Notes under the pieces: generated by a model
Databases searched by the model: none
What the model was told of the DNA's origin: nothing
The model's input: the letters and a program-made list of their open reading frames with translations, nothing else
Position numbers and translations under genes: made by a program
In this document: positions 4,573-33,150 of the stretch, one piece after another
Numbering within the stretch: position 1 is the first letter of the stretch
Layout: each line of letters opens with the position of its first letter
IMG/VR virus record: IMGVR_UViG_3300000295_000002
Location: 1 to 64,000 of that record
DNA length: 64,000 bases
Reading direction: 5' to 3' (one strand)
From: a virus

Positions 4573-5573
4573 TACTCACCTCCTTCCCAATCATCAGTCG
4601 TTCCTAGTAGATGTGCTGTCTCTTCGTTGTAAGGTATACAATACTTACGACTAAATCCGATACAACGAAAAGGATATTGTGATTCTTCTCTATAATGAGA
4701 AAAGAGTTCAGCTTCCCATACATCATCTTTCTCATTTCGCCCCAACACTTTATCGAATGGCTTAAACTCGCACTTTGGCTTTAAATCCACAATCTGTTTC
4801 TTCTCAGCATCCCAAGCCTTGCCTTTCTTTGCGAGAGCTGAGAAGAACTGTTTTTTCTCTTCTTCTGTAGCAAGGCGAAGTTCTGTGATTTCATCTTTAC
4901 GTATTATGCATTTACCACTAATATCTAAAAACTGATTTGTGGTGTCTAGTGAAGCGTGGTCGCATAAGTCACCATTCTTTTTAGAGTACTCAAAGATTTC
5001 AATAAAAGCACTGTCATTACATTTCACGAACAAAACATCTCCATCCTTGAACTCAGGCTTTTCAAATTTTAACTTATAGCCTAGTCTTTTCTCTATTTGG
5101 CGGATGTATTTCTGAGCGTCTTCTTTGTTTGCTTTGCTGAAATCTGATGTTGGCAATTCGTCTTCATACTCTCCGAAGCACATTGTAATACCCTCATTTT
5201 TCCACAGATAATTATTACCATTGAAAGTTTCGTAGGTATCATCATCAAACCCCTCGAAGATAACATGTGCATTTCCATCTTTGTTAACTAGAATGTCTCC
5301 TGTATTCCAAGCGAGCTTAGACCAGTCTCGCATTTCTTTGGAAGGAAGGAGAATCTGTAAGCCATCAAGCCAACTTTCTTCTGTACCTAGTTTTGAATAA
5401 TCAAACAAAAGAGTACTGCCTACTTCATTAGTTGATGTGCATTCTATATAAGTACCAGCGACTGTTGTGTGGACTTTATCTAACTCTACGTCTATATTGC
5501 GTAATAAGTCATACAACTTTGTCCCTTGCGGTTTATCCTTTAGGATTTCCGCTACATTAATATTTTCTTCCAT
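4572..5573 (-). CDS. hypothetical protein (333 aa)
   Basis: Long ORF with start/stop overlap to neighbours. Confidence 0.65.
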   Translation of the reverse strand: MEENINVAEILKDKPQGTKLYDLLRNIDVELDKVHTTVAGTYIECTSTNEVGSTLLFDYSKLGTEESWLDGLQILLPSKEMRDWSKLAWNTGDILVNKDGNAHVIFEGFDDDTYETFNGNNYLWKNEGITMCFGEYEDELPTSDFSKANKEDAQKYIRQIEKRLGYKLKFEKPEFKDGDVLFVKCNDSAFIEIFEYSKKNGDLCDHASLDTTNQFLDISGKCIIRKDEITELRLATEEEKKQFFSALAKKGKAWDAEKKQIVDLKPKCEFKPFDKVLGRNEKDDVWEAELFSHYREESQYPFRCIGFSRKYCIPYNEETAHLLGTTDDWEGGE

Positions 5574-10355: not shown

Positions 10356-10748
10356 CTAGAATGGTAAATCATCAGGGTCAGATGATGGAGCAGCAGATTG
10401 TGGCTGCTGCGGTTGTGCAGGTGGAGTGTAAGGTGCAGATGGTTGTGCTACCCCCGCTGGTGCTTGTGCAGTAGCTTGTTGTGACACCTTAGTAACATTC
10501 CAAGCACGAATCTGATTAAAATATCTGCCCTGATATTCATGTGCATCAATATCAAAGCTAACGTTAATAACCTCACCGAACTGAATACCAAAACTAGCAA
10601 TTCTATCCGCTCCAAAAACATCAAAAGCCATCTTCTTAGGATATTGCTCTTGTGTTTCTATTACATAGGTCTGCGATTTCCACTCACCTCTTGCAGATAC
10701 GCCGCTTCTTTCAGGTAAAACGGCAATAACTTTTCCTTGAATTTCCAT
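10356..10748 (-). CDS. single-stranded DNA-binding protein (DUF3127-like OB fold with acidic SSB tail)
   Basis: The N-terminal OB-like domain is followed by a P/Q/A-rich linker. The C-terminus DPDDLPF resembles the SSB tip DDDIPF. Confidence 0.7.
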   Translation of the reverse strand: MEIQGKVIAVLPERSGVSARGEWKSQTYVIETQEQYPKKMAFDVFGADRIASFGIQFGEVINVSFDIDAHEYQGRYFNQIRAWNVTKVSQQATAQAPAGVAQPSAPYTPPAQPQQPQSAAPSSDPDDLPF

Positions 10749-12145
10749 TATTTTTTATTTAAAGAATTTTGTAAAACCAAATCAGCCAACTCATCAAAGT
10801 AGGCAACATCCTTAATAGCGGAATCTTGTTCACCAGTAACCTTTGATGCTATAGAACCTTTCTTCATAATCAAGCTATAAAGATAACTGTCAATAGTATC
10901 AATTCCCATCAGAATCCACGATGTAACAGCATTTTTCTGTCCGTTACGATAAGCACGGCATTCACACTGAGATAAGTCTGCCATCGTCCAAGGTAGCTCC
11001 GTGAATACGACATTCGATGAAGCCGTAAGAGTTAATCCTACACCAGCAGCCTTAATGGAACAGATGATTATTCTCTTTTTCTTAGCTTGGAAAGAGTCAA
11101 TAGCCCATTGTTTCTGCTGCTGATTATCAGAGCCAGTAACGGAACATACCTCACAAGGAAACTCCTTTTTGATTGCATCAACAATATCACGATGTTCTGC
11201 AAACACAATTATCTGTTCTTCCGTATCATGTAGAAACTCGATTGTTGCTTTCATCTTTCCCTTTCCAGATATAGAACGAAGATTCATAAATTTAACTAAT
11301 GCCTTCATTCGTAGCTTTTTTCTAGCTTCATCCTCAGAGCAATTCTTATATTCAAGAAGGAATGTAAGCAAGTCTTTTTGGCAAGTATCATACTCTTCTT
11401 GTGTTTCAGAATCAAGAGCAACACTAATTGTTGTTCTTGTTAGTTCAGGCAAATCTTTGAGCACATCTTTCTTTTCTCTGCGAAAGTAACATGTTTCGTG
11501 AATCTTTTGATTAAGCTCTTCGAGATTCTCGTTTTCTCCATATCTATTACAGAACTCGCCATATCCGCCAAATTCATCAATTCTACCAAGAATAGCCAAC
11601 TGGCAAGCCATATCAGTAGCATGGTTAACCACAGGCGTACCAGTCAGCTCGTAGATATATTCCTTACCTTGGCAAATACCCATTATTATTTTTGACTGCC
11701 TTGTCGTTGGGTCTTTAACTCTTGCAGACTCATCAATAATGACCGATTTCAGAATATCGACCTCATTCCTAAAAATGAAATTTTTAAGCTTTAACGGCTT
11801 TTCTCCGAGTGATACAACGAAATATTTAGCAAGAGACTCGTAATTGCATATAACCACATCATACAAATCCATCTTAGTAAGATGATAGCCGTATGTTGCG
11901 TTTACAGAATCCGTAAGAATAAGCGGACGAAGATTTGTGAATCTCTTGATTTCACGTTCCCAATTGACTTTGAGGGCAGCAGGGCAAATAACCAAGCAAG
12001 GAGTCGCTTTTGCACGTTCAATGGCAACAATAGACTGAATCGTTTTGCCCGTTCCCATGTCATCCCCATTTATGCAACGCTTCATAGCAAGTTCCATGCG
12101 TACACCCTCTTCTTGATAATCGTATAATTTTGGTTTATCTGACAT
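10748..12145 (-). CDS. SNF2-family DEAD/H helicase
   Basis: Walker A MGTGKT, DESARVKD box and motif VI QCECRAYRNGQ. Confidence 0.85.
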   Translation of the reverse strand: MSDKPKLYDYQEEGVRMELAMKRCINGDDMGTGKTIQSIVAIERAKATPCLVICPAALKVNWEREIKRFTNLRPLILTDSVNATYGYHLTKMDLYDVVICNYESLAKYFVVSLGEKPLKLKNFIFRNEVDILKSVIIDESARVKDPTTRQSKIIMGICQGKEYIYELTGTPVVNHATDMACQLAILGRIDEFGGYGEFCNRYGENENLEELNQKIHETCYFRREKKDVLKDLPELTRTTISVALDSETQEEYDTCQKDLLTFLLEYKNCSEDEARKKLRMKALVKFMNLRSISGKGKMKATIEFLHDTEEQIIVFAEHRDIVDAIKKEFPCEVCSVTGSDNQQQKQWAIDSFQAKKKRIIICSIKAAGVGLTLTASSNVVFTELPWTMADLSQCECRAYRNGQKNAVTSWILMGIDTIDSYLYSLIMKKGSIASKVTGEQDSAIKDVAYFDELADLVLQNSLNKK

Positions 12146-20039: not shown

Positions 20040-20195
20040 AAAACTCAACGACTTATCCCAAGCAGTTGAGAAAAAAATAAATTATTTAAGTAAAACAAAA
20101 CACTTAAAAAGTGTCGATTCCAAATAAAGTACAACTACTTTCACAAGCTGTCATACAAGTATGAAAGATAATTAATAATTAAAAAATGTATTGAG

Positions 20196-20266
20196 TAGTT
20201 CCAGACTGAATCGAACAATCTCTAAGAGAACCAAAATCTCTTGTGCTACCGTTACACCATAGAACC
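20196..20266 (-). tRNA. tRNA-Gln (anticodon TTG)
   Basis: Hand-folded cloverleaf: acceptor GGTTCTA/TGGAACT, anticodon arm AGAGA-TTTTGGT-TCTCT, T arm GATTG-TTCGATT-CAGTC. Confidence 0.75.
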
Positions 20267-20359
20267 ATGAAGCATCATATTCTCACGAACTTGATGCTAA
20301 GATTTAAAAAGCTAATTAAGCACTTTACCTTATAACCTTATAACCAAAAAAATGAGTGT

Positions 20360-20430
20360 TGCAGAGTGCAGGATTCGAACCTGCGACCTCTAGGACATGA
20401 AACTAGCGAGCTACCACTGCTCCAACCTGC
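20360..20430 (-). tRNA. tRNA with CAT anticodon (Met or Ile2)
   Basis: T arm GCAGG-TTCGAAT-CCTGC and anticodon loop TTCATGT. There is one acceptor mismatch, one anticodon-stem mismatch, and a short 8/9 junction. Confidence 0.6.
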
Positions 20431-20562
20431 GATTTGTGCAGCCTATCTTCACAGACAGACTGCATTGCCATCATTGTCAAATTCAAATTCAAATTTTGTT
20501 AATTAAAATATAAACAAACAAGTAATCAAATAAAATATTTATGCAAAAACATTTAGAACTTT

Positions 20563-20654
20563 GGAGATATTGTCGGATTCGAACCAACACTTCCATACGA
20601 TAAGAACGGTATCTTCAAGTTGTATGACGTGCTTCCGTTTACACTAAATATCTC
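20563..20654 (-). ncRNA. tRNA-shaped RNA with expanded anticodon arm (92 nt)
   Basis: Acceptor GAGATAT/ATATCTC, D arm GTG-TAAACGGAAG-CAC, T arm GTTGG-TTCGAAT-CCGAC. The stem CATAC/GTATG encloses 23 nt, made of an 8-nt bulge plus the hairpin GATA-CCGTTCT-TATC. Confidence 0.55.
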
Positions 20655-20808
20655 TTTGTTGTTATTTAATTAAAGTATTGAGAAGTAATCTCTACTTTAA
20701 GTAGTGTTTAAGTCTCATTCTTTGACTTAACTCTGTTCAGAGTTAGCTAGACTTCTATATTCGTAATAAACGTTGTACTATCTAATAATAATAATAATTG
20801 AAAATTTG

Positions 20809-20908
20809 TGCAGGGAGGCGGAATCGAACCGCCACTATCTCACACGATAAGAAGAGGTATTATCTATTGTGCGAGGTGTGCAAGAATACCACTTACACCA
20901 TACCCTGC
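20809..20908 (-). ncRNA. tRNA-shaped RNA with expanded anticodon arm (100 nt)
   Basis: Acceptor GCAGGG(T)/(T)CCCTGC and T arm GGCGG-TTCGATT-CCGCC. The stem CACAC/GTGTG encloses 30 nt, made of an 11-nt bulge plus the hairpin GATAA-TACCTCTTC-TTATC. The D region is irregular. Confidence 0.5.
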
Positions 20909-21343
20909 TGTTTTATGTACCTAAAACCATGGAACTTTCTGTCGTTTGTGAATGCCACGATATTAATCGTTTCCGTATTCCCGATACAGCTAGCATTGAC
21001 GTTCCGTATGACACTCCATACATATTATAAATATCTTACACGTAAGATGGCAATAATACATACTTCGACTAGAATACTACATAGCAAACGATACAGACCT
21101 ATATTATGCCCTTTGCTTGTGCTGATGTTTCAGCATAGTTCATCGGTATAGTCTATGTAATATCTGTTACTGACTAGTTTTTCGTATGTCGTGCGTCCTT
21201 TTCGCCAGGTCACGGCATCCATTGATGCTCTCCGGCTACTTCTTTTCCACGCATACTATATTCTGTGCGTCAATATGTCAAAGAACTCTTCTCTAGCTTT
21301 CAGTTTCATCACTTATAGTGATAATCTGATTCTAAAAGAATTG

Positions 21344-21417
21344 CGGTTTCAGCAGGATTCGAACCTACGACCTATCGGTTAACAGCCGACCGCTCTAACC
21401 ATCTGAGCTATGAAACC
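21344..21417 (-). tRNA. tRNA-Asn (anticodon GTT)
   Basis: Clean cloverleaf: GGTTTCA/TGAAACC, D arm GCTC-AGATGGTTA-GAGC, anticodon arm GTCGG-CTGTTAA-CCGAT, T arm GTAGG-TTCGAAT-CCTGC. Confidence 0.85.
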
Positions 21418-22348: not shown

Positions 22349-22798
22349 ATGAATGATATTGCGAAGAACTTAAAGTTTTGCTTCGACATAAGTAAATTCA
22401 AGTCGATGTCTCAGTTTTGCAAGGTAATAGGTATAGACCAAGCTAATCTCAGCAAGAAGATGAGCGAAAGTAATACCAAGTATTCTTTCAACAAGAATGA
22501 TATTCAAAAGATTTGCTACAATCTAGGTCTGAGAAAAGAATGGCTAGTAAATTCTGATGGCGATATGTTTGATGATAAAGCTGCCGTTAGTCCAAGTGAC
22601 TGGGTTTTTGGTAAAGATAGAACACCTAATATAAATATGGTGAACGAAGAAAACGCCCACCACAACAAACAGATAATTGGAGACTTCTCAGAGAGCGAAA
22701 TCAATCTGTTGCGTGAGCAGGTGGCAGACCTGCGCAAGCAAGTAGAGAGCAAGGATGCTCAAATCAAGCAGCTAATGGATTTGCTTGCAAAGAAGTAG
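22349..22798 (+). CDS. HTH transcriptional regulator with C-terminal coiled coil (Cro/antirepressor-side candidate)
   Basis: SQFCKVIGIDQANLSKKMSE...KEWLVNSDGDMF parallels the divergent gene. The C-terminus reads LREQVADLRKQVESKDAQIKQLMDLL. Confidence 0.6.
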   Translation: MNDIAKNLKFCFDISKFKSMSQFCKVIGIDQANLSKKMSESNTKYSFNKNDIQKICYNLGLRKEWLVNSDGDMFDDKAAVSPSDWVFGKDRTPNINMVNEENAHHNKQIIGDFSESEINLLREQVADLRKQVESKDAQIKQLMDLLAKK

Positions 22799-22800
22799 GA

Positions 22801-23055
22801 ATGCAAGTAATATGCAAGTAAGGTATAATTTTAACACAATATGAAAACAAAGAAACTATCAGTAAACACTATATGTGTGAGGGGTGGATATACCCCAAAA
22901 AATGGTGAGCCTATTGAGCTTCACTTAACGCGATAAGCATTCACACTGAGTATCAATACGTTACGAGATTTAACGAGTAAAATATAAAGTAAAAAATGCC
23001 CGAAAAGCCCCGTAAATATGATAAAAACTGATAGACTTTGCAAGTAATATGCAAG
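22801..23055 (+). repeat. 17-nt perfect direct repeat TGCAAGTAATATGCAAG upstream of the integrase
   Basis: Copies at 22802-22818 and 23039-23055; each contains two TGCAAG half-sites. Confidence 0.8.
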
Positions 23056-23073
23056 CTAATAGGAGATAGAATT

Positions 23074-24240
23074 ATGAAGGTTTACGTTGAAGACAAGACA
23101 TATAAGGTGTATTTCTCCATCACTCATAAGTGTAAGAGATTCTATATATACACAGGATTGCAATCGACAGAGAAGTTTGATGGTATGGTATTTCCTCGTT
23201 CAGACAAGTCTGCAAAGGCAAAAACTAAGCGACTGGCAGAGCTATATTCAAGCGTGGAAGACTATATACTGCTGCACAAGGGTGAGGACGTTCCGATGCT
23301 AAAAAGCCATCTGAAAGAGATTATAAAGGGTGGCAAGGTAGCTGAGAAGAATTTCCTCGACTATATGCAGATGTGTGCAGATTTCAAGAATTTGAAAGCT
23401 GGCACGAAGAGAGTATATGATGTGACCATCATCAGAATTAGAAATTTTGATGCTAAGTGTACATTTGATACCATCACTAGAGACTGGCTCGATAAGTTTG
23501 TGAAGCATGAATATGAAAGAGGACGGATGCCTAACGGAGTTCATATTGATTTGAGAAATATCAAGGCAACATTCAATTGGGCAATTGATAATGAGATAAC
23601 AACCCTATTCCCATTCCGTAAGTACGTACTTCCACATGAGGAAACAAGAAAGCGTTGTTTATCTCTAGAACAGATGAGACAGTTGCGTGATGCAGAGTTC
23701 CACACTAACCCTCAACGTGAATCAAGGGATTTGTTCATGCTAGGTTTCTATTTGATTGGTATCAATATATCAGACCTTCTCGATTTGAAGCAAACAGACC
23801 TTCGTGGTGGCAGAATATGCTACAAGCGCAACAAGACGGGACGATTGTATGATATAAAGGTAGAACCAGAGGCGTTGGAGATTATAAAGCGATACAAAGG
23901 AAATAAATACCTTTTAAAGTATAAGGACAGCAGTAAGTTCAACCTCAAACACTTTGAGAGCAATTTGAATTTCAGACTTAAAAGGTTAGGTAAATTCAGA
24001 GAATATAGTAAAGAACCGATGTTCCCTTATCTTTCCACCTACTATAATCGCCATACGTGGGCAACGCTAGCAAGCGAGATTGATATACCGATGGAAGTTA
24101 TAGGCAGGGCATTAGGTCATGCGATGTGGGATAATGCGGTAACATCAACCTACATTAAATATGATACAAAGAAGATTGATGAAGCCAACAGAAAGGTTAT
24201 TGATTACCTTAACAAAGATTTAGAAGATACAGATTTATAA
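23074..24240 (+). CDS. int: tyrosine recombinase / phage integrase
   Basis: C-terminal NRHTWATLA...IGRALGHAMWDNAVTSTYIKY (H-x-x-R...Y) catalytic pattern; AGGAGA upstream of the ATG at 23074. Confidence 0.85.
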   Translation: MKVYVEDKTYKVYFSITHKCKRFYIYTGLQSTEKFDGMVFPRSDKSAKAKTKRLAELYSSVEDYILLHKGEDVPMLKSHLKEIIKGGKVAEKNFLDYMQMCADFKNLKAGTKRVYDVTIIRIRNFDAKCTFDTITRDWLDKFVKHEYERGRMPNGVHIDLRNIKATFNWAIDNEITTLFPFRKYVLPHEETRKRCLSLEQMRQLRDAEFHTNPQRESRDLFMLGFYLIGINISDLLDLKQTDLRGGRICYKRNKTGRLYDIKVEPEALEIIKRYKGNKYLLKYKDSSKFNLKHFESNLNFRLKRLGKFREYSKEPMFPYLSTYYNRHTWATLASEIDIPMEVIGRALGHAMWDNAVTSTYIKYDTKKIDEANRKVIDYLNKDLEDTDL

Positions 24241-24265
24241 TTATTACAATTAAAAGAGCAAATAA

Positions 24266-24290
24266 AAAGGGAGGCTACGAACCTCCCTTT
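24266..24290. terminator. bidirectional intrinsic terminator
   Basis: AAAGGGAGG-CTACGAA-CCTCCCTTT lies between convergent genes. Confidence 0.7.
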
Positions 24291-24294
24291 CTTG

Positions 24295-26711: not shown

Positions 26712-27395
26712 TCAAACTAATTGCAAGTACTTCTCAGAATATTTCTTTCTAAGATACTCTAATACGTGGTTATATGATTTAAGAAAACCATCATTAATAA
26801 GCATAGCTACTTGTCTCTCCATATTAAACAATTCGTATTGTTTAACTTCTTCTCCTTGTTTGTTTCTCATTTCGTGTTCATGCTTTCCGAACACAACGCA
26901 ATTTATTGCTTTTGCTATTTTGCACATAGCTGCTGACATAAACTTCTTACTAACAATTTTACTGATAGCAGAACCAAGCTCTTTGTACGCATCGCCTGCA
27001 TCGTTTCTATATTTCAACATTTGGTCGTACACAAACTTTATAACTTGAACCTCAAATCGTGGATTGAGCCACATTGCGAATTTAACAAAGAGAATAGGGT
27101 GCATCCAAGTACCTCCACCTCTATCAGACCTTGCTTTCGATTTTACATACACAGAATTTTGGGTATGTAGATTTTCTTCCTCCATCAAAGCATTGATGAA
27201 CTCCTTGATTCCTTTGTTATTGAAGAAATCATCAAGGTCTTTCTTTACATACCCAACTTTTTGGGTATCATCATTATGCTCAACAAACTCATTCCATTGT
27301 TTGAGCAAGTTTGTAGCATTGAACATACTATCTTTTGTTCTTTGCTCGACCAAAAAATTACCCATTGGTCTCTTCATTACTTGATTTGTAATCAT
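26712..27395 (-). CDS. KilA-N domain DNA-binding protein
   Basis: GGGTWMHPILFVKFAMWLNPRFEVQV is KilA-N-like. Start placed at the ATG at 27395 (MITNQV...). Confidence 0.65.
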   Translation of the reverse strand: MITNQVMKRPMGNFLVEQRTKDSMFNATNLLKQWNEFVEHNDDTQKVGYVKKDLDDFFNNKGIKEFINALMEEENLHTQNSVYVKSKARSDRGGGTWMHPILFVKFAMWLNPRFEVQVIKFVYDQMLKYRNDAGDAYKELGSAISKIVSKKFMSAAMCKIAKAINCVVFGKHEHEMRNKQGEEVKQYELFNMERQVAMLINDGFLKSYNHVLEYLRKKYSEKYLQLV

Positions 27396-27900
27396 CTTCC
27401 CTATATTTAATGATTTATAATTAATATTGTTCCTTATAAAAAGGTTATATGAAACAGGCAATAGACCTCTGAGAGAGTGGTTCTCCCCCTTACCCCCATC
27501 ATTCATTGAAACGATGAGAGTTTGGAAGGAATATTCCACTCGAAGTTACATGAACCCAGTATAATGAGCCCCTTCGGTCGGGTCAGTTGCCAAATCGTAC
27601 AGCACTTAACCTAAGCAGCTTTCGGGGTACGCCCCGCCCTGCCCGCCTTCTGCCTTCAGTTCCTGCGGTGTCACCATGCACCTCTTGTGACGTGGGTTTA
27701 AAGTCTGTGTAGCCGAGTGTATTTAGCCGACAAGCCACCAAGACTACTTGTTTACTCTCGAAAAAGAATAGGGAAAGTGAAAACCCTATCCTTTGTTCGT
27801 GTTGCGCTCCGAACTCCGGATAGGGTTTCGTATAGGGAAGTGAATAATCACTCAAATATACTTAAATGTCCGCTGTTTAGTGCGCAACTACTAACAAGCA
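27396..27900 (-). ncRNA. long GC-rich structured leader / candidate ncRNA upstream of the KilA-N gene
   Basis: There is no credible ORF. GC-rich runs such as GCCCCGCCCTGCCCGCC stand in an AT-rich genome. Structures include an 11-bp perfect hairpin (27781-27791/27818-27828) and a CGGGG-UACG-CCCCG hairpin at 27623-27636. A minus-strand TACTTTTG box lies at 27904-27911. Confidence 0.5.
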
Positions 27901-27903
27901 CTG

Positions 27904-27911
27904 CAAAAGTA
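27904..27911 (-). promoter_or_regulatory. TAnnTTTG -7-like promoter box
   Basis: Minus-strand TACTTTTGCAG; same shape as the other boxes in the window. Confidence 0.4.
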
Positions 27912-28314
27912 CGCAATTCCTTGCAAACCACCAAATTAGCTGATTTTTCATTAACTTGCTTTATTGTGGATAAATATGGATAATATATATTTAATAGGCT
28001 TTTCGGGGATTTATGACTTTAACCTTTATAAGTTTAATTAACACAAAAATGCCCCACACCACCAAAAAATGATGATGCAGGGCGATATGATAGGTATAAA
28101 AGAAATGCGAAAGTAAAGCCCCACCATTGAGCACCAACGGCAGGGCTGAGATAGACATATGAGTTCCAAAGAATAATTGCTTTGCAAAGATAAGTAAAAT
28201 ATCTGAGAACTCAAAGAGATAGTGAAAATTTCTTCTGTAAGCGGTTAAAATAGTCTATTGGTATGATTTATCGGTTCGATAGTTTAAACGTCTTGTATGC
28301 TACATAAAACAAAT

Positions 28315-28342
28315 CCTCGCCTACCACAATAGGTAAGCGAGG
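28315..28342 (-). terminator. intrinsic terminator
   Basis: CCTCGCTTACCT-ATTGT-GGTAGGCGAGG followed by ATTTGTTTTA on the minus strand, just after the stop at 28363. Confidence 0.7.
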
Positions 28343-28362
28343 AACTATATATGCACGATTAC

Positions 28363-28620
28363 TTAGTCCTTAATAGCCTCATTGACCTCGTAATCCATAA
28401 TCTTTGCCAAAGTGTTGCTGATTAACGTGCTCATTACGTTGTACTGGCTGGTAAACTTATCGTCTATTCTGTCATTCACAAGCACACCATACTCTTCCTT
28501 GGCTCTATCGACCTCGCTCATAAAGTCCACGTACACCTCACGTAACTTGATGAGGGTCTTAGCCAACTTTGGCTGCTCCACGTTCTGCAACAATGTTGCA
28601 TTGATATTCTGTCCGTTCAT
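28363..28620 (-). CDS. hypothetical protein
   Basis: ORF track. Confidence 0.55.
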   Translation of the reverse strand: MNGQNINATLLQNVEQPKLAKTLIKLREVYVDFMSEVDRAKEEYGVLVNDRIDDKFTSQYNVMSTLISNTLAKIMDYEVNEAIKD

Positions 28621-32088: not shown

Positions 32089-33150
32089 TTATTCCTCCTC
32101 TGTATTATTGTTGTTGTTATTCAGTTCCTTGTAATACTGCTGAATCTCCTCATCAGTCATACCCTTTTCTCGCATTACACGATAGTTTGCAGAACCACGT
32201 CTGAAATAAACCTGACTGCCATAGACTGAGCGTAGATTGTAATACGCACTTCTTACTAGTTCTTTGGTTAATACCTTGCCAGTGGACGAATAAACACCCA
32301 TCTGCTGCAACATCATAGCTGCATCGGCAAAGTTAGGTGTAGTCAATTCAGTGAAGTCATTGGTACACTTCTTAACCACATTCCATATAGCTTTGTTGCA
32401 AGGTTTCTCAGCAGCCTCTTTCTTGCGCTTTTCCGATGCCGCCTTCTGTGCGTTTGATAAATCGCATTTTCTAGGTCTGCCCAACTTCTTTACGACCTTA
32501 CCTGACTTTGAGATAAATTCTCCGTCTTTTGCCAACTTCTGTTTGCGTACTTCCAATGCGCTCTGTGTTCGTTCCTGTATGAGTTCACGCTCCATCTGTG
32601 CCGAAAATGAGAATGCGAATAGTAGCATTTCGTCAATCGCTTTCAGATGGCTACAATCAAGGTCAATGCCCATCTGAACGATAACCAAGCGCACGCCACG
32701 TGGTTTCAGTTCGTCATTTACAAACTTGTTGATGTCGCTCATAGAACGACCGATACGGCTGACCTCTGACACGATAAGTATATCACCTTTATCAAGCATC
32801 GGTAGCACTACCTTACCAAGGTTTCTATCCTTATAAGATACCTTACCCGATACTCCTTCCTCCTTCACTTCGTGAGTAGCTTTGAGATTGTGACAATTCA
32901 ACCATTCGTTGATTGTTCTTTCTTGCTGCTCCAATGTCTGCTTTTCAGTAGAGACACGACTGTATATTATTACTTTCTGCTTTGGCTCATCATCATCGGT
33001 CATGTTTGCCTTTGCGTTGCAGCTTTTGTCAGAACGGCAAAGGTAGTGACCTTCTGTCATCATGCAATAAGGGCAATCCTTACAGCCGATGTTCACGATG
33101 TCGTATTTTACAGATGCGCCACCTTCATTCTTGATTTCTATTGTCTTCAT
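32089..33150 (-). CDS. serine recombinase (resolvase/invertase family) with N-terminal Cys-rich extension
   Basis: VIIYSRVSTEKQTLEQQ and VSEVSRIGRS resolvase motifs, preceded by CKDCPYC...C..DKSC. Confidence 0.8.
   Translation of the reverse strand: MKTIEIKNEGGASVKYDIVNIGCKDCPYCMMTEGHYLCRSDKSCNAKANMTDDDEPKQKVIIYSRVSTEKQTLEQQERTINEWLNCHNLKATHEVKEEGVSGKVSYKDRNLGKVVLPMLDKGDILIVSEVSRIGRSMSDINKFVNDELKPRGVRLVIVQMGIDLDCSHLKAIDEMLLFAFSFSAQMERELIQERTQSALEVRKQKLAKDGEFISKSGKVVKKLGRPRKCDLSNAQKAASEKRKKEAAEKPCNKAIWNVVKKCTNDFTELTTPNFADAAMMLQQMGVYSSTGKVLTKELVRSAYYNLRSVYGSQVYFRRGSANYRVMREKGMTDEEIQQYYKELNNNNNNTEEE

Follow-up and report, generated by a model that had tools for sequence, protein, structure and literature searches.

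The window analysed here is the whole 64,000-nt stretch formed by positions 1-64,000 of IMG/VR record IMGVR_UViG_3300000295_000002. On its minus strand, between a promoter box and a KilA-N gene, lies a discrete non-coding structured RNA of ~490 nt with two domains (27899-27412). The RNA opens a variable gene cassette beside the integrase gene in prophages of Segatella (Prevotella) copri, and it is a new, previously undescribed family among the orphan structured phage RNAs and leaders, with membership in no named family. An earlier reading of the window (the original prediction) had proposed a structured non-coding RNA of ~500 nt on the minus strand, directly 3' of a TAnnTTTG box, and this was borne out. 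The locus comprises the following features.

27932-27935, minus strand: -33 element TTTG of the putative promoter, 20 nt upstream of the -7 box.
27904-27911, minus strand: -7 box TACTTTTG (TAnnTTTG), the 5' limit of the conserved block.
27746-27899, minus strand: 5' domain, ~155 nt, present in all types of the element (model R3 and alignment A10, below).
27457-27745, minus strand: GC-rich 3' domain of type A, ~290 nt, supported by covariation.
27412-27456, minus strand: AU-rich tail, in which CCUU (27444-27441) and AAGG (27435-27432) form a small hairpin that varies; the block ends at ~27412.
27396-27405, minus strand: UAUAGGGAAG before the KilA-N AUG, complement of 27840-27831, part of the gene cassette and not of the conserved RNA.
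26712-27395, minus strand: KilA-N gene (PF04383, E 1.3e-19), a replaceable first gene of the cassette.
24264-24292, no strand assigned: bidirectional terminator ending the unit and facing the convergent integrase gene (23038-24240, plus strand).

All motifs named in the original prediction were recovered where it had placed them, both by reading the minus strand and by script. These include TACTTTTG at 27911-27904, the KilA-N start ATG at 27395-27393, the perfect 11-bp hairpin of AAACCCTATCC (27828-27818) and GGATAGGGTTT (27791-27781), and GTCAC (27691) with GTGAC (27674). The CGGGG/CCCCG hairpin (27636-27623) was also there, but its loop reads CGUA (CGTA in DNA) and not UACG. The hexamer ATAGGG/CCCTAT occurs five times, in RNA sense as CCCUAU at 27837, 27825 and 27773 and as AUAGGG at 27789 and 27404; these five are among 16 copies that the full 64-kb window contains, counting both orientations. 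CUUCCCUAUA (27840-27831) is the exact complement of UAUAGGGAAG (27405-27396), the 10 bases ahead of the AUG. The block is GC-rich as described, with 44% GC in the region and 55-60% at ~27550-27700 versus 38% window-wide, and the 532-nt strand folds below all of its dinucleotide shuffles (minimum free energy z = -4.5).

Copies of the element were found at ~220 loci across IMG/VR, gut metagenomes and S. copri genomes, and the block is conserved in these with sharp boundaries and abundant compensatory base-pair changes. In an alignment of IMG/VR copies, ~27905-27412 is 93-100% identical among copies, whereas the flanks are 50-75% identical; conservation is limited upstream by the promoter box and downstream by a point just ahead of the initiation region of the next gene. 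A consensus structure of the homologues, the check suggested with the original prediction, contains compensatory pairs in the 5' domain across all three types of the element (A, B and C) and in the 3' domain of types A and C. Covarying pairs pass through G-U intermediates (U-G/U-A; C-G/U-G/U-A) that are compatible with the minus strand alone; on the opposite strand these would be A-C mismatches, and the RNA sense is therefore the minus strand of the window.

The absence of a credible open reading frame (ORF), as originally noted, also held. Internal ORFs (a 90-aa ORF starting with TTG, ATG ORFs of 23-37 aa and a GTG-extended KilA-N) are disrupted in homologues by indels of 1, 2, 7 or 12 nt or by stop codons, and the internal ORFs of the 27899-27412 stretch had zero matches in Pfam and PHROG. 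A protein-coding gene or fragment was ruled out on these grounds, there being no conserved reading frame and no protein-family match. That the block is something other than RNA, whether a coding fragment, a DNA site (operators, iterons or a CCCTAT-based origin) or a recently spread selfish DNA cassette, is extremely improbable. Its boundaries are sharp, and neither the 8-bp core of hairpin P3 nor the CCCTAT copies covary, both being invariant, and they could be protein-binding DNA sites; however, every ORF is broken, and the element is present in a single copy per genome and lacks terminal repeats. Dozens of compensatory pairs, the one-strand G-U intermediates and a helix tip of variable length point to selection on RNA pairing.

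Known RNA families do not account for the element. At gathering thresholds, cmscan of the whole window against Rfam 15 returned three tRNAs only, and scans at E up to 10 of window positions 27200-28400, of a type-B locus (L074) and of a divergent type-A locus (L252) returned noise only (10-17 bits). The comparison with Rfam proposed in the original prediction (GOLLD, ROOL, group I/II introns and riboswitches) gave no family match, and the Rfam models for c4, HEARO, tmRNA, RNase P and 6S RNA likewise did not match. The element was unmatched by blastn against GenBank phages, and full-text literature searches and the supplements of a paper contained no description of the ~490-nt RNA. Two candidate structures were discarded: a G-quadruplex in GGCGGGCAGGGCGGGG, of which the fourth G run is not conserved, and a helix between -7 box bases and 27608-27605, for which RNAalifold indicated apparent covariation, because those bases lie upstream of the predicted start of transcription and the signal tracks two clades.

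The 5' domain, shared by all types, consists of three hairpins within a closing helix, with a loop-loop contact between the first and the last. Its parts, all on the minus strand, are as follows.

27899-27896 with 27749-27746: P1 (GCUU/AAGU), closing the 5' domain.
27894-27891 with 27880-27877: P1a hairpin, 100% paired, with one compensatory pair.
27861-27830: P2, a two-part hairpin in which all 11 pairs covary in alignment A10.
27828-27781: P3, a two-part hairpin with an 11-bp lower stem, a 3x3 internal loop and a 5-bp upper stem.
27882-27888: kissing strand 1, GUUGCGC, in the 10-nt P1a loop (27890-27881), pairing with 27807-27801.
27801-27807: kissing strand 2, GCGCAAC, in the 10-nt terminal loop of P3, pairing with 27888-27882.
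27757-27783: U-rich, G-poor tract after P3 (GGGUUUUCACUUU...), with the third CCCUAU (27773-27768) and a second U run.

In alignment A10, 98% of cells are paired, a share that drops to 31-40% once the 3' partners are shifted out of register, and two-sided changes affect 20 of 42 pairs; such covariance-model alignments are biased toward the structure of the model, and the sequences are kin to one another. The 7-bp kissing helix between P1a and P3 was left outside the model and is nevertheless 99.5-100% paired on the model-derived alignments, with five of its seven pairs changed on both sides. It is perfect Watson-Crick in 210 of 219 loci, at equal distance, and occurs in 11 compensated variants; the chance expectation of such a complement is ~0.005 per sequence. 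P3 is stable (delta-G ~ -23 kcal/mol), and its upper stem covaries (GUUCG/CGAAC, GUUUGG/CCAGAC, GUUCG/CGAGC). Its 8-bp core, CCCUAUCC/GGAUAGGG, never varies; this invariance is in part by construction in types B and C because the scans required the exact core, but it also holds in ~116 loci retrieved by patterns that did not include P3. The tract after P3 is U-rich in types A, B and C despite sequence change (A10; by eye, approximately at least 7 U in the next 10 nt), and the junction sequences of the domain differ among the three types. GGAUAGGG can pair alternatively with CCCUAUUC, at ~ -9 kcal/mol.

The 3' part measures ~330 nt in all. In type A, the form present in the window, its GC-rich domain folds into four units on the minus strand.

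27745-27702: long hairpin.
27696-27637: three-way element.
27636-27623: CGGGG-CGUA-CCCCG hairpin.
27591-27457: multi-branch domain.

Alignment A1, which holds 48 distinct type-A sequences, keeps 117 pairs at 99.9%. The divergent type-A copy L252 (82% identical) replaces U-A by C-G, GUCAC/GUGAC by GUCGC/GCGAC, CCGC/GCGG by ACGC/GCGU and CGGGG/CCCCG by CGGU/ACCG; one hairpin tip is 7 nt shorter with the stem retained. These changes are compensated or tolerated. With type C added, 19 of 34 pairs in model R1 and 12 of 42 in model R2 are altered on both sides. Across the whole element, at least 18 helices plus the kissing contact are supported. The large 3' domain may be a sensor, a stability module or a specificity module.

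The copies were collected by several routes. Matches to an exact 30-mer taken from the GC-rich core were obtained in 28 contigs of IMG/VR, and other anchors brought the number to ~60; the same 30-mer had 0 matches in GTDB genomes. Degenerate patterns assigned the host as S. copri, including the complete genome of an isolate, strain HDD04 (NZ_CP152484.1), which carries the element near 931.4-932.0 kb, and copies have so far turned up only in S. copri-complex phages. A loose hairpin pattern searched against genome contigs gave ~120 chance matches and no homologue. Type B was first met as L074, fetched in a genome search through the 307-aa helix-turn-helix (HTH) regulator encoded downstream; the proteins listed by a large protein search with that regulator were all at least 88% identical and added no loci. 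L074 matched just the first ~147 columns of the element profile, and a pattern made for type B brought in 52 further contigs. A metagenome scan with the P3 hairpin gave 97 loci, namely 46 of type A, 35 of type B and 16 others, which include type C in two subgroups as well as L290 and L280 (below). The later scans demanded the exact P3 core, and members with an altered P3 were missed.

Types A and B are alike at one end only. The first ~145 nt of type B are 68-76% identical to those of the window, and in the next ~330 nt neither blastn nor models R1 and R2 (filters off) detect any kinship with type A, on which grounds the two 3' domains were judged non-homologous. By contrast, R1 and R2, which were built from type A only, align type C over its full length at the expected adjacent positions (E 0.002-0.07), so types A and C are distant homologues. 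Model R3, a 5'-domain model also built from type A only, picks up the 5' domains of both other types, B and C, with E values between 1e-11 and 1e-17. These comparisons indicate that the 5' domain is universal to all types and that the 3' domain exists in two unrelated forms, A/C and B. One locus (L088) is a chimera that joins a 5' domain of type A to a 3' domain of type B.

RNA type does not follow the phage backbone. Each of three integrase types occurs with both RNA types A and B, and a link between RNA type and integrase type was discarded as no correlation was found. The backbone of L262, a type-C locus, is 87-91% identical to the window, yet blastn aligns only 62 nt of its RNA, and the whole RNA is ~60% identical to that of the window by rough estimate. 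Without linkage to integrase or backbone, the RNA alleles are thus old lineages, exchanged between phages by recombination, and inside any one lineage the RNA evolves more slowly than the adjoining proteins. We note three unusual loci. L290 (~10560-10800) carries a type-A RNA with a ~170-nt deletion in the 3' domain, apparently between the repeats GAAGGCGGG and AAGGGGGAG, and is still followed by a KilA-N gene. L280 (~2090-2350) has a type-C 5' domain followed by an insertion with a ~60-nt tandem duplication (GTTGTGGTTTGATGTAGGAACATGATAATATA...), the usual 3' domain being missing. L070 (CAAGQJ010000016.1) is a 91-kb contig with a Segatella-type prophage that was binned in a 'Bacilli bacterium' metagenome-assembled genome, probably by error.

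The element stands at the head of what appears to be a transcription unit. The -7 box reads TACTTTTG, TATCTTTG or TACCTTTG across types A, B and C while sequence farther upstream diverges, and the 20-nt spacing between -33 and -7 elements is kept in L250 (TTTG) and L074 (ATTG) with different spacer sequences. The -33/-7 consensus is that of Bacteroides sigma-A promoters. TAnnTTTG is common in the window (103 matches versus 74 expected), and the promoter argument therefore rests on position and conservation and not on the motif. The RNA is predicted to begin a few bases 3' of this Bacteroidetes-type promoter. In nearly every locus the first ORF starts 470-520 nt after the RNA 5' end, whichever gene it is. 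First genes encode KilA-N (two kinds), Bro-N, DUF559, an SPFH lipoprotein, a Cys-rich 186-aa protein, membrane proteins of 181 and 371 aa, a 303-307-aa regulator resembling HTH_17/sigma-70 region 4, or an insertion sequence (IS) transposase. In L262 the first cassette gene (4779-5501, minus strand) encodes a 240-aa protein with a C-terminal half that is RNase H-like by eye, and in L002 and L007 the RNA is separated from the usual cassette genes by an inserted gene for a 562-aa IS-type transposase.

No canonical terminator was detected between the RNA 3' end and the next ORF in the window, and its unit has no intergenic terminator-like sites, the only site, a weak one (25668-25652), lying inside the 307-aa gene. 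Most other loci have no such site ahead of the terminal terminator and some have a single weak internal one, and there too the unit ends at a strong bidirectional terminator opposite the integrase. Upstream of the element are moron-like lipoprotein genes and three terminator-like hairpins. Directly upstream of the promoter, 28192-28045 (minus strand) holds a second TAnnTTTG box, TATCTTTG (28192-28185), and strong U-run hairpins at 28147-28117 and 28083-28051, with no credible ORF and a fold z of -4.9; this is either a small RNA unit or tandem terminators of the upstream moron genes. Elsewhere in the window, tRNA genes for Gln (ttg), Met (cat) and Asn (gtt) lie at 20195-21417 (minus strand), just beyond the integrase and a repressor-like gene (22349-22798), and may mark the prophage-host junction or be phage tRNAs. 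The same prophage encodes a serine recombinase/invertase (32089-33150, minus strand; PHROG 125, E 4e-33) besides its tyrosine integrase.

The original prediction had also raised the possibility that the RNA is a KilA-N leader in which CCCUAU repeats pair with the UAUAGGGAAG initiation region, sequestering the ribosome-binding site and switching KilA-N translation. As the main function of the element this is very unlikely. Beyond the exact 10-bp complementarity of 27840-27831 with 27405-27396, the centroid fold does pair these two ends, and the pre-AUG 10-mer recurs in 29 of the 48 distinct type-A copies. However, it is missing from the other 19 and from all type-B and type-C copies, and the pairing is without covariation support. 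The 10-mer stands ahead of the KilA-N gene and of a 244-aa DUF559-like gene, and other downstream genes lack it; being confined to some gene cassettes, it does not make sequestration of the ribosome-binding site a conserved function. The element itself stops at ~27412, and the gene that follows varies or is entirely lacking. The repeats are not constant either: types B and C lack the first CCCUAU, and one type-A subtype (L016) has lost the third by deletion. Translation initiation in Bacteroidetes is, moreover, largely independent of Shine-Dalgarno pairing. Perfect complementarity over 10 bp is unlikely by chance (~5e-4), so a local effect on KilA-N translation, specific to the variant in the window, may nevertheless occur.

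The reading we favour, tentatively and at somewhat less than even chance, is that the RNA is a cis-acting leader that gates transcription into the cassette. The RNA forms the constant 5' part of the integrase-adjacent unit and would act in cis on its own transcript. The first 125 nt fold as P1a, P2 and P3, joined by the 7-bp kissing helix. With its G+C-rich CCC/GGG base, a run of A before it and a U-rich tract after it, P3 has the look of a promoter-proximal intrinsic terminator or pause site, some 125 nt downstream of the start. GGAUAGGG can alternatively pair with other CCCUAU partners, each of them missing in some subgroup and much weaker than P3 itself (-9 versus -23 kcal/mol), and the fold of the 5' domain would decide how much RNA polymerase proceeds into the 3' domain and the cassette genes. 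Several observations are consistent with such a gate. The anatomy of an attenuator is present at sequence level, with a stable P3, a G+C-rich base and a U-rich tract between promoter and first gene. The constant distance to the ORF start and the lack of a terminator-like site before the ORF in the window suit a leader.

Other observations weigh against a transcription gate. The transcription start site, the 3' end and termination at P3 are deduced from sequence only. P1 can close only once the polymerase is past P3, and another ~330 nt of conserved structure come after it, so P3 cannot terminate constitutively with high efficiency. In function the genes downstream are a mixed set, unlike coherent riboswitch regulons, and the size and complexity of the element are above those of known attenuators. 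Neither the deep allelic types (A/C versus B) nor the hypervariable kissing helix is obviously needed by a generic cis gate. Finally, in one locus (L250) an intact RNA is followed by a terminator only, which suggests that the RNA is valuable on its own.

This locus, L250:5640-6210, comprises a promoter, an intact type-B RNA and a bidirectional terminator ~75 nt after the RNA, with no ORF between, and faces the integrase; past the integrase come host genes, judged by eye to encode an RluA-like synthase and a patatin. The alternative of a large stand-alone ncRNA, named in the original prediction, is still viable. An autonomous RNA, functioning as a ribonucleoprotein scaffold, ribozyme, self-assembling RNA or decoy for or against host defence, sharing its promoter with genes inserted later and having a function unrelated to cassette expression, is possible but doubtful. 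The whole 490 nt are more constrained than the adjoining proteins, the cassette genes are interchangeable, and the number of supported helices and the kissing contact would suit such an RNA; GOLLD and ROOL, which are phage-borne, multimerise via kissing loops. Yet in almost all loci an ORF begins within tens of bases of the RNA, neither a terminator nor a promoter of its own intervening, the neighbourhood holds no conserved gene for a partner protein, and the ~170-nt deletion in L290 suggests that part of the 3' domain is dispensable.

The L250 unit, which retains promoter, RNA and terminator alone, would also suit a type-specific trans-acting regulatory RNA providing RNA-based immunity in the manner of P4 CI or P1 c4, which we consider rather unlikely. 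Constitutive RNA from a prophage would kiss the P1a or P3 loop of nascent transcripts, its own or those of superinfecting phages, and force termination at P3; antirepressor-like, Xis-like and early cassette genes would thereby be held off, with the loops and the 3'-domain type setting specificity (heteroimmunity). Few parts of the element are as polymorphic as the kissing helix, which is always compensated, and loop-loop kissing is the usual first contact in antisense RNA systems; however, both partners lie in one 5' domain, so a contact within a single molecule accounts for the covariation just as well, and the hairpin at 27636-27623 is equally polymorphic, so variability may just mean tolerance. 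The shuffling of the deep A/C and B alleles among backbones and integrase types, chimeras such as L088, and the frequent presence in the unit of KilA-N or Bro-N proteins plus an HTH_17-domain regulator would also fit. Against this, the P3 kissing loop has no consistent second target within 1.5 kb downstream, its sole partner lying 59-65 nt upstream, whereas c4 and CI have targets on both sides. A search for trans targets of the RNA in the window found nothing beyond chance (26 11-mers versus ~15 expected), and the element is six times larger than c4 or CI.

A broader proposal, also unlikely and if anything slightly more so, is a modular RNA specificity system in which a universal kissing 5' domain, diversified by compensated loop changes, is combined with interchangeable 3' domains (A/C and B) for recognition in trans between co-resident or superinfecting Segatella phages. 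If true, it would mean RNA-only immunity or incompatibility control of an integrase-proximal early or accessory operon, or type-specific RNA multimers, and a form of discrimination between phages of which Bacteroidota offer no described example.

Large bacterial or phage RNAs with a well-supported structure and no known family are rare, and earlier finds of this kind (GOLLD, ROOL, OLE and raiA) each opened new biology. The carriers here are abundant prophages of S. copri, a dominant gut bacterium in non-Westernised populations, and the RNA heads a hypervariable integrase-adjacent cassette, a place where phages often put lysogeny control, antirepressor, exclusion and anti-defence genes. Post-transcriptional regulation in Bacteroidota is poorly known, and the modular architecture, natural chimeras, deletion variants and sequenced isolate make RNA-based prophage control testable in this phylum.

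Among known systems, P1 c4 and P22 sar had been offered as analogies in the original prediction; with no match to the Rfam c4 family (RF01695) and no second target, the analogy serves as a lead only. Like P4 CI and P1/P7 c4, the element is a promoter-proximal leader of a phage operon that can hold antirepressor-type genes, has short complementary segments in the leader and could carry specificity in compensated loops. Those RNAs, however, are ~77-80 nt long and pair with sites flanking their own gene on either side, one of which takes in the initiation region of the first gene, whereas the ~490-nt element has a variable P3 loop with a single upstream partner. Two-sided targets were not found for it, nor was a fixed downstream gene or antirepressor operon, KilA-N and Bro-N genes following in some loci only.

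Riboswitch and attenuator leaders (for example, the cobalamin riboswitch with its L5-L13 contact) similarly have a promoter-proximal multi-helix junction closed by P1, a kissing loop and then a hairpin with a U tract. The element differs in its junction nucleotides, which vary by type, its ~330 nt of extra structure, the lack of a common downstream metabolism and the lack of an Rfam match; neither a conserved aptamer nor a coherent set of downstream genes was found. The cis-acting processive antitermination RNAs HK022 put and EAR are, like the element, structured RNAs right after a promoter, and a leader of that kind would act on any downstream genes, which fits the interchangeable cassette. 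They are much shorter, put being ~70 nt (two stem-loops) and EAR ~120 nt, no similarity in sequence or structure was established, and most loci here have no internal terminators needing override; the terminators that processive antitermination would have to read through were not found consistently across loci. GOLLD, ROOL, OLE and raiA share with the element a length of several hundred nt, many covarying helices, prominent kissing loops and an association with phages or prophages. The element differs from them in its place as a leader immediately 5' of ORFs and in its modular build, in which the two kinds of 3' domain are unrelated; it occurs, so far as copies were found, only in S. copri-complex phages and matched none of these RNAs in cmscan at E up to 10.

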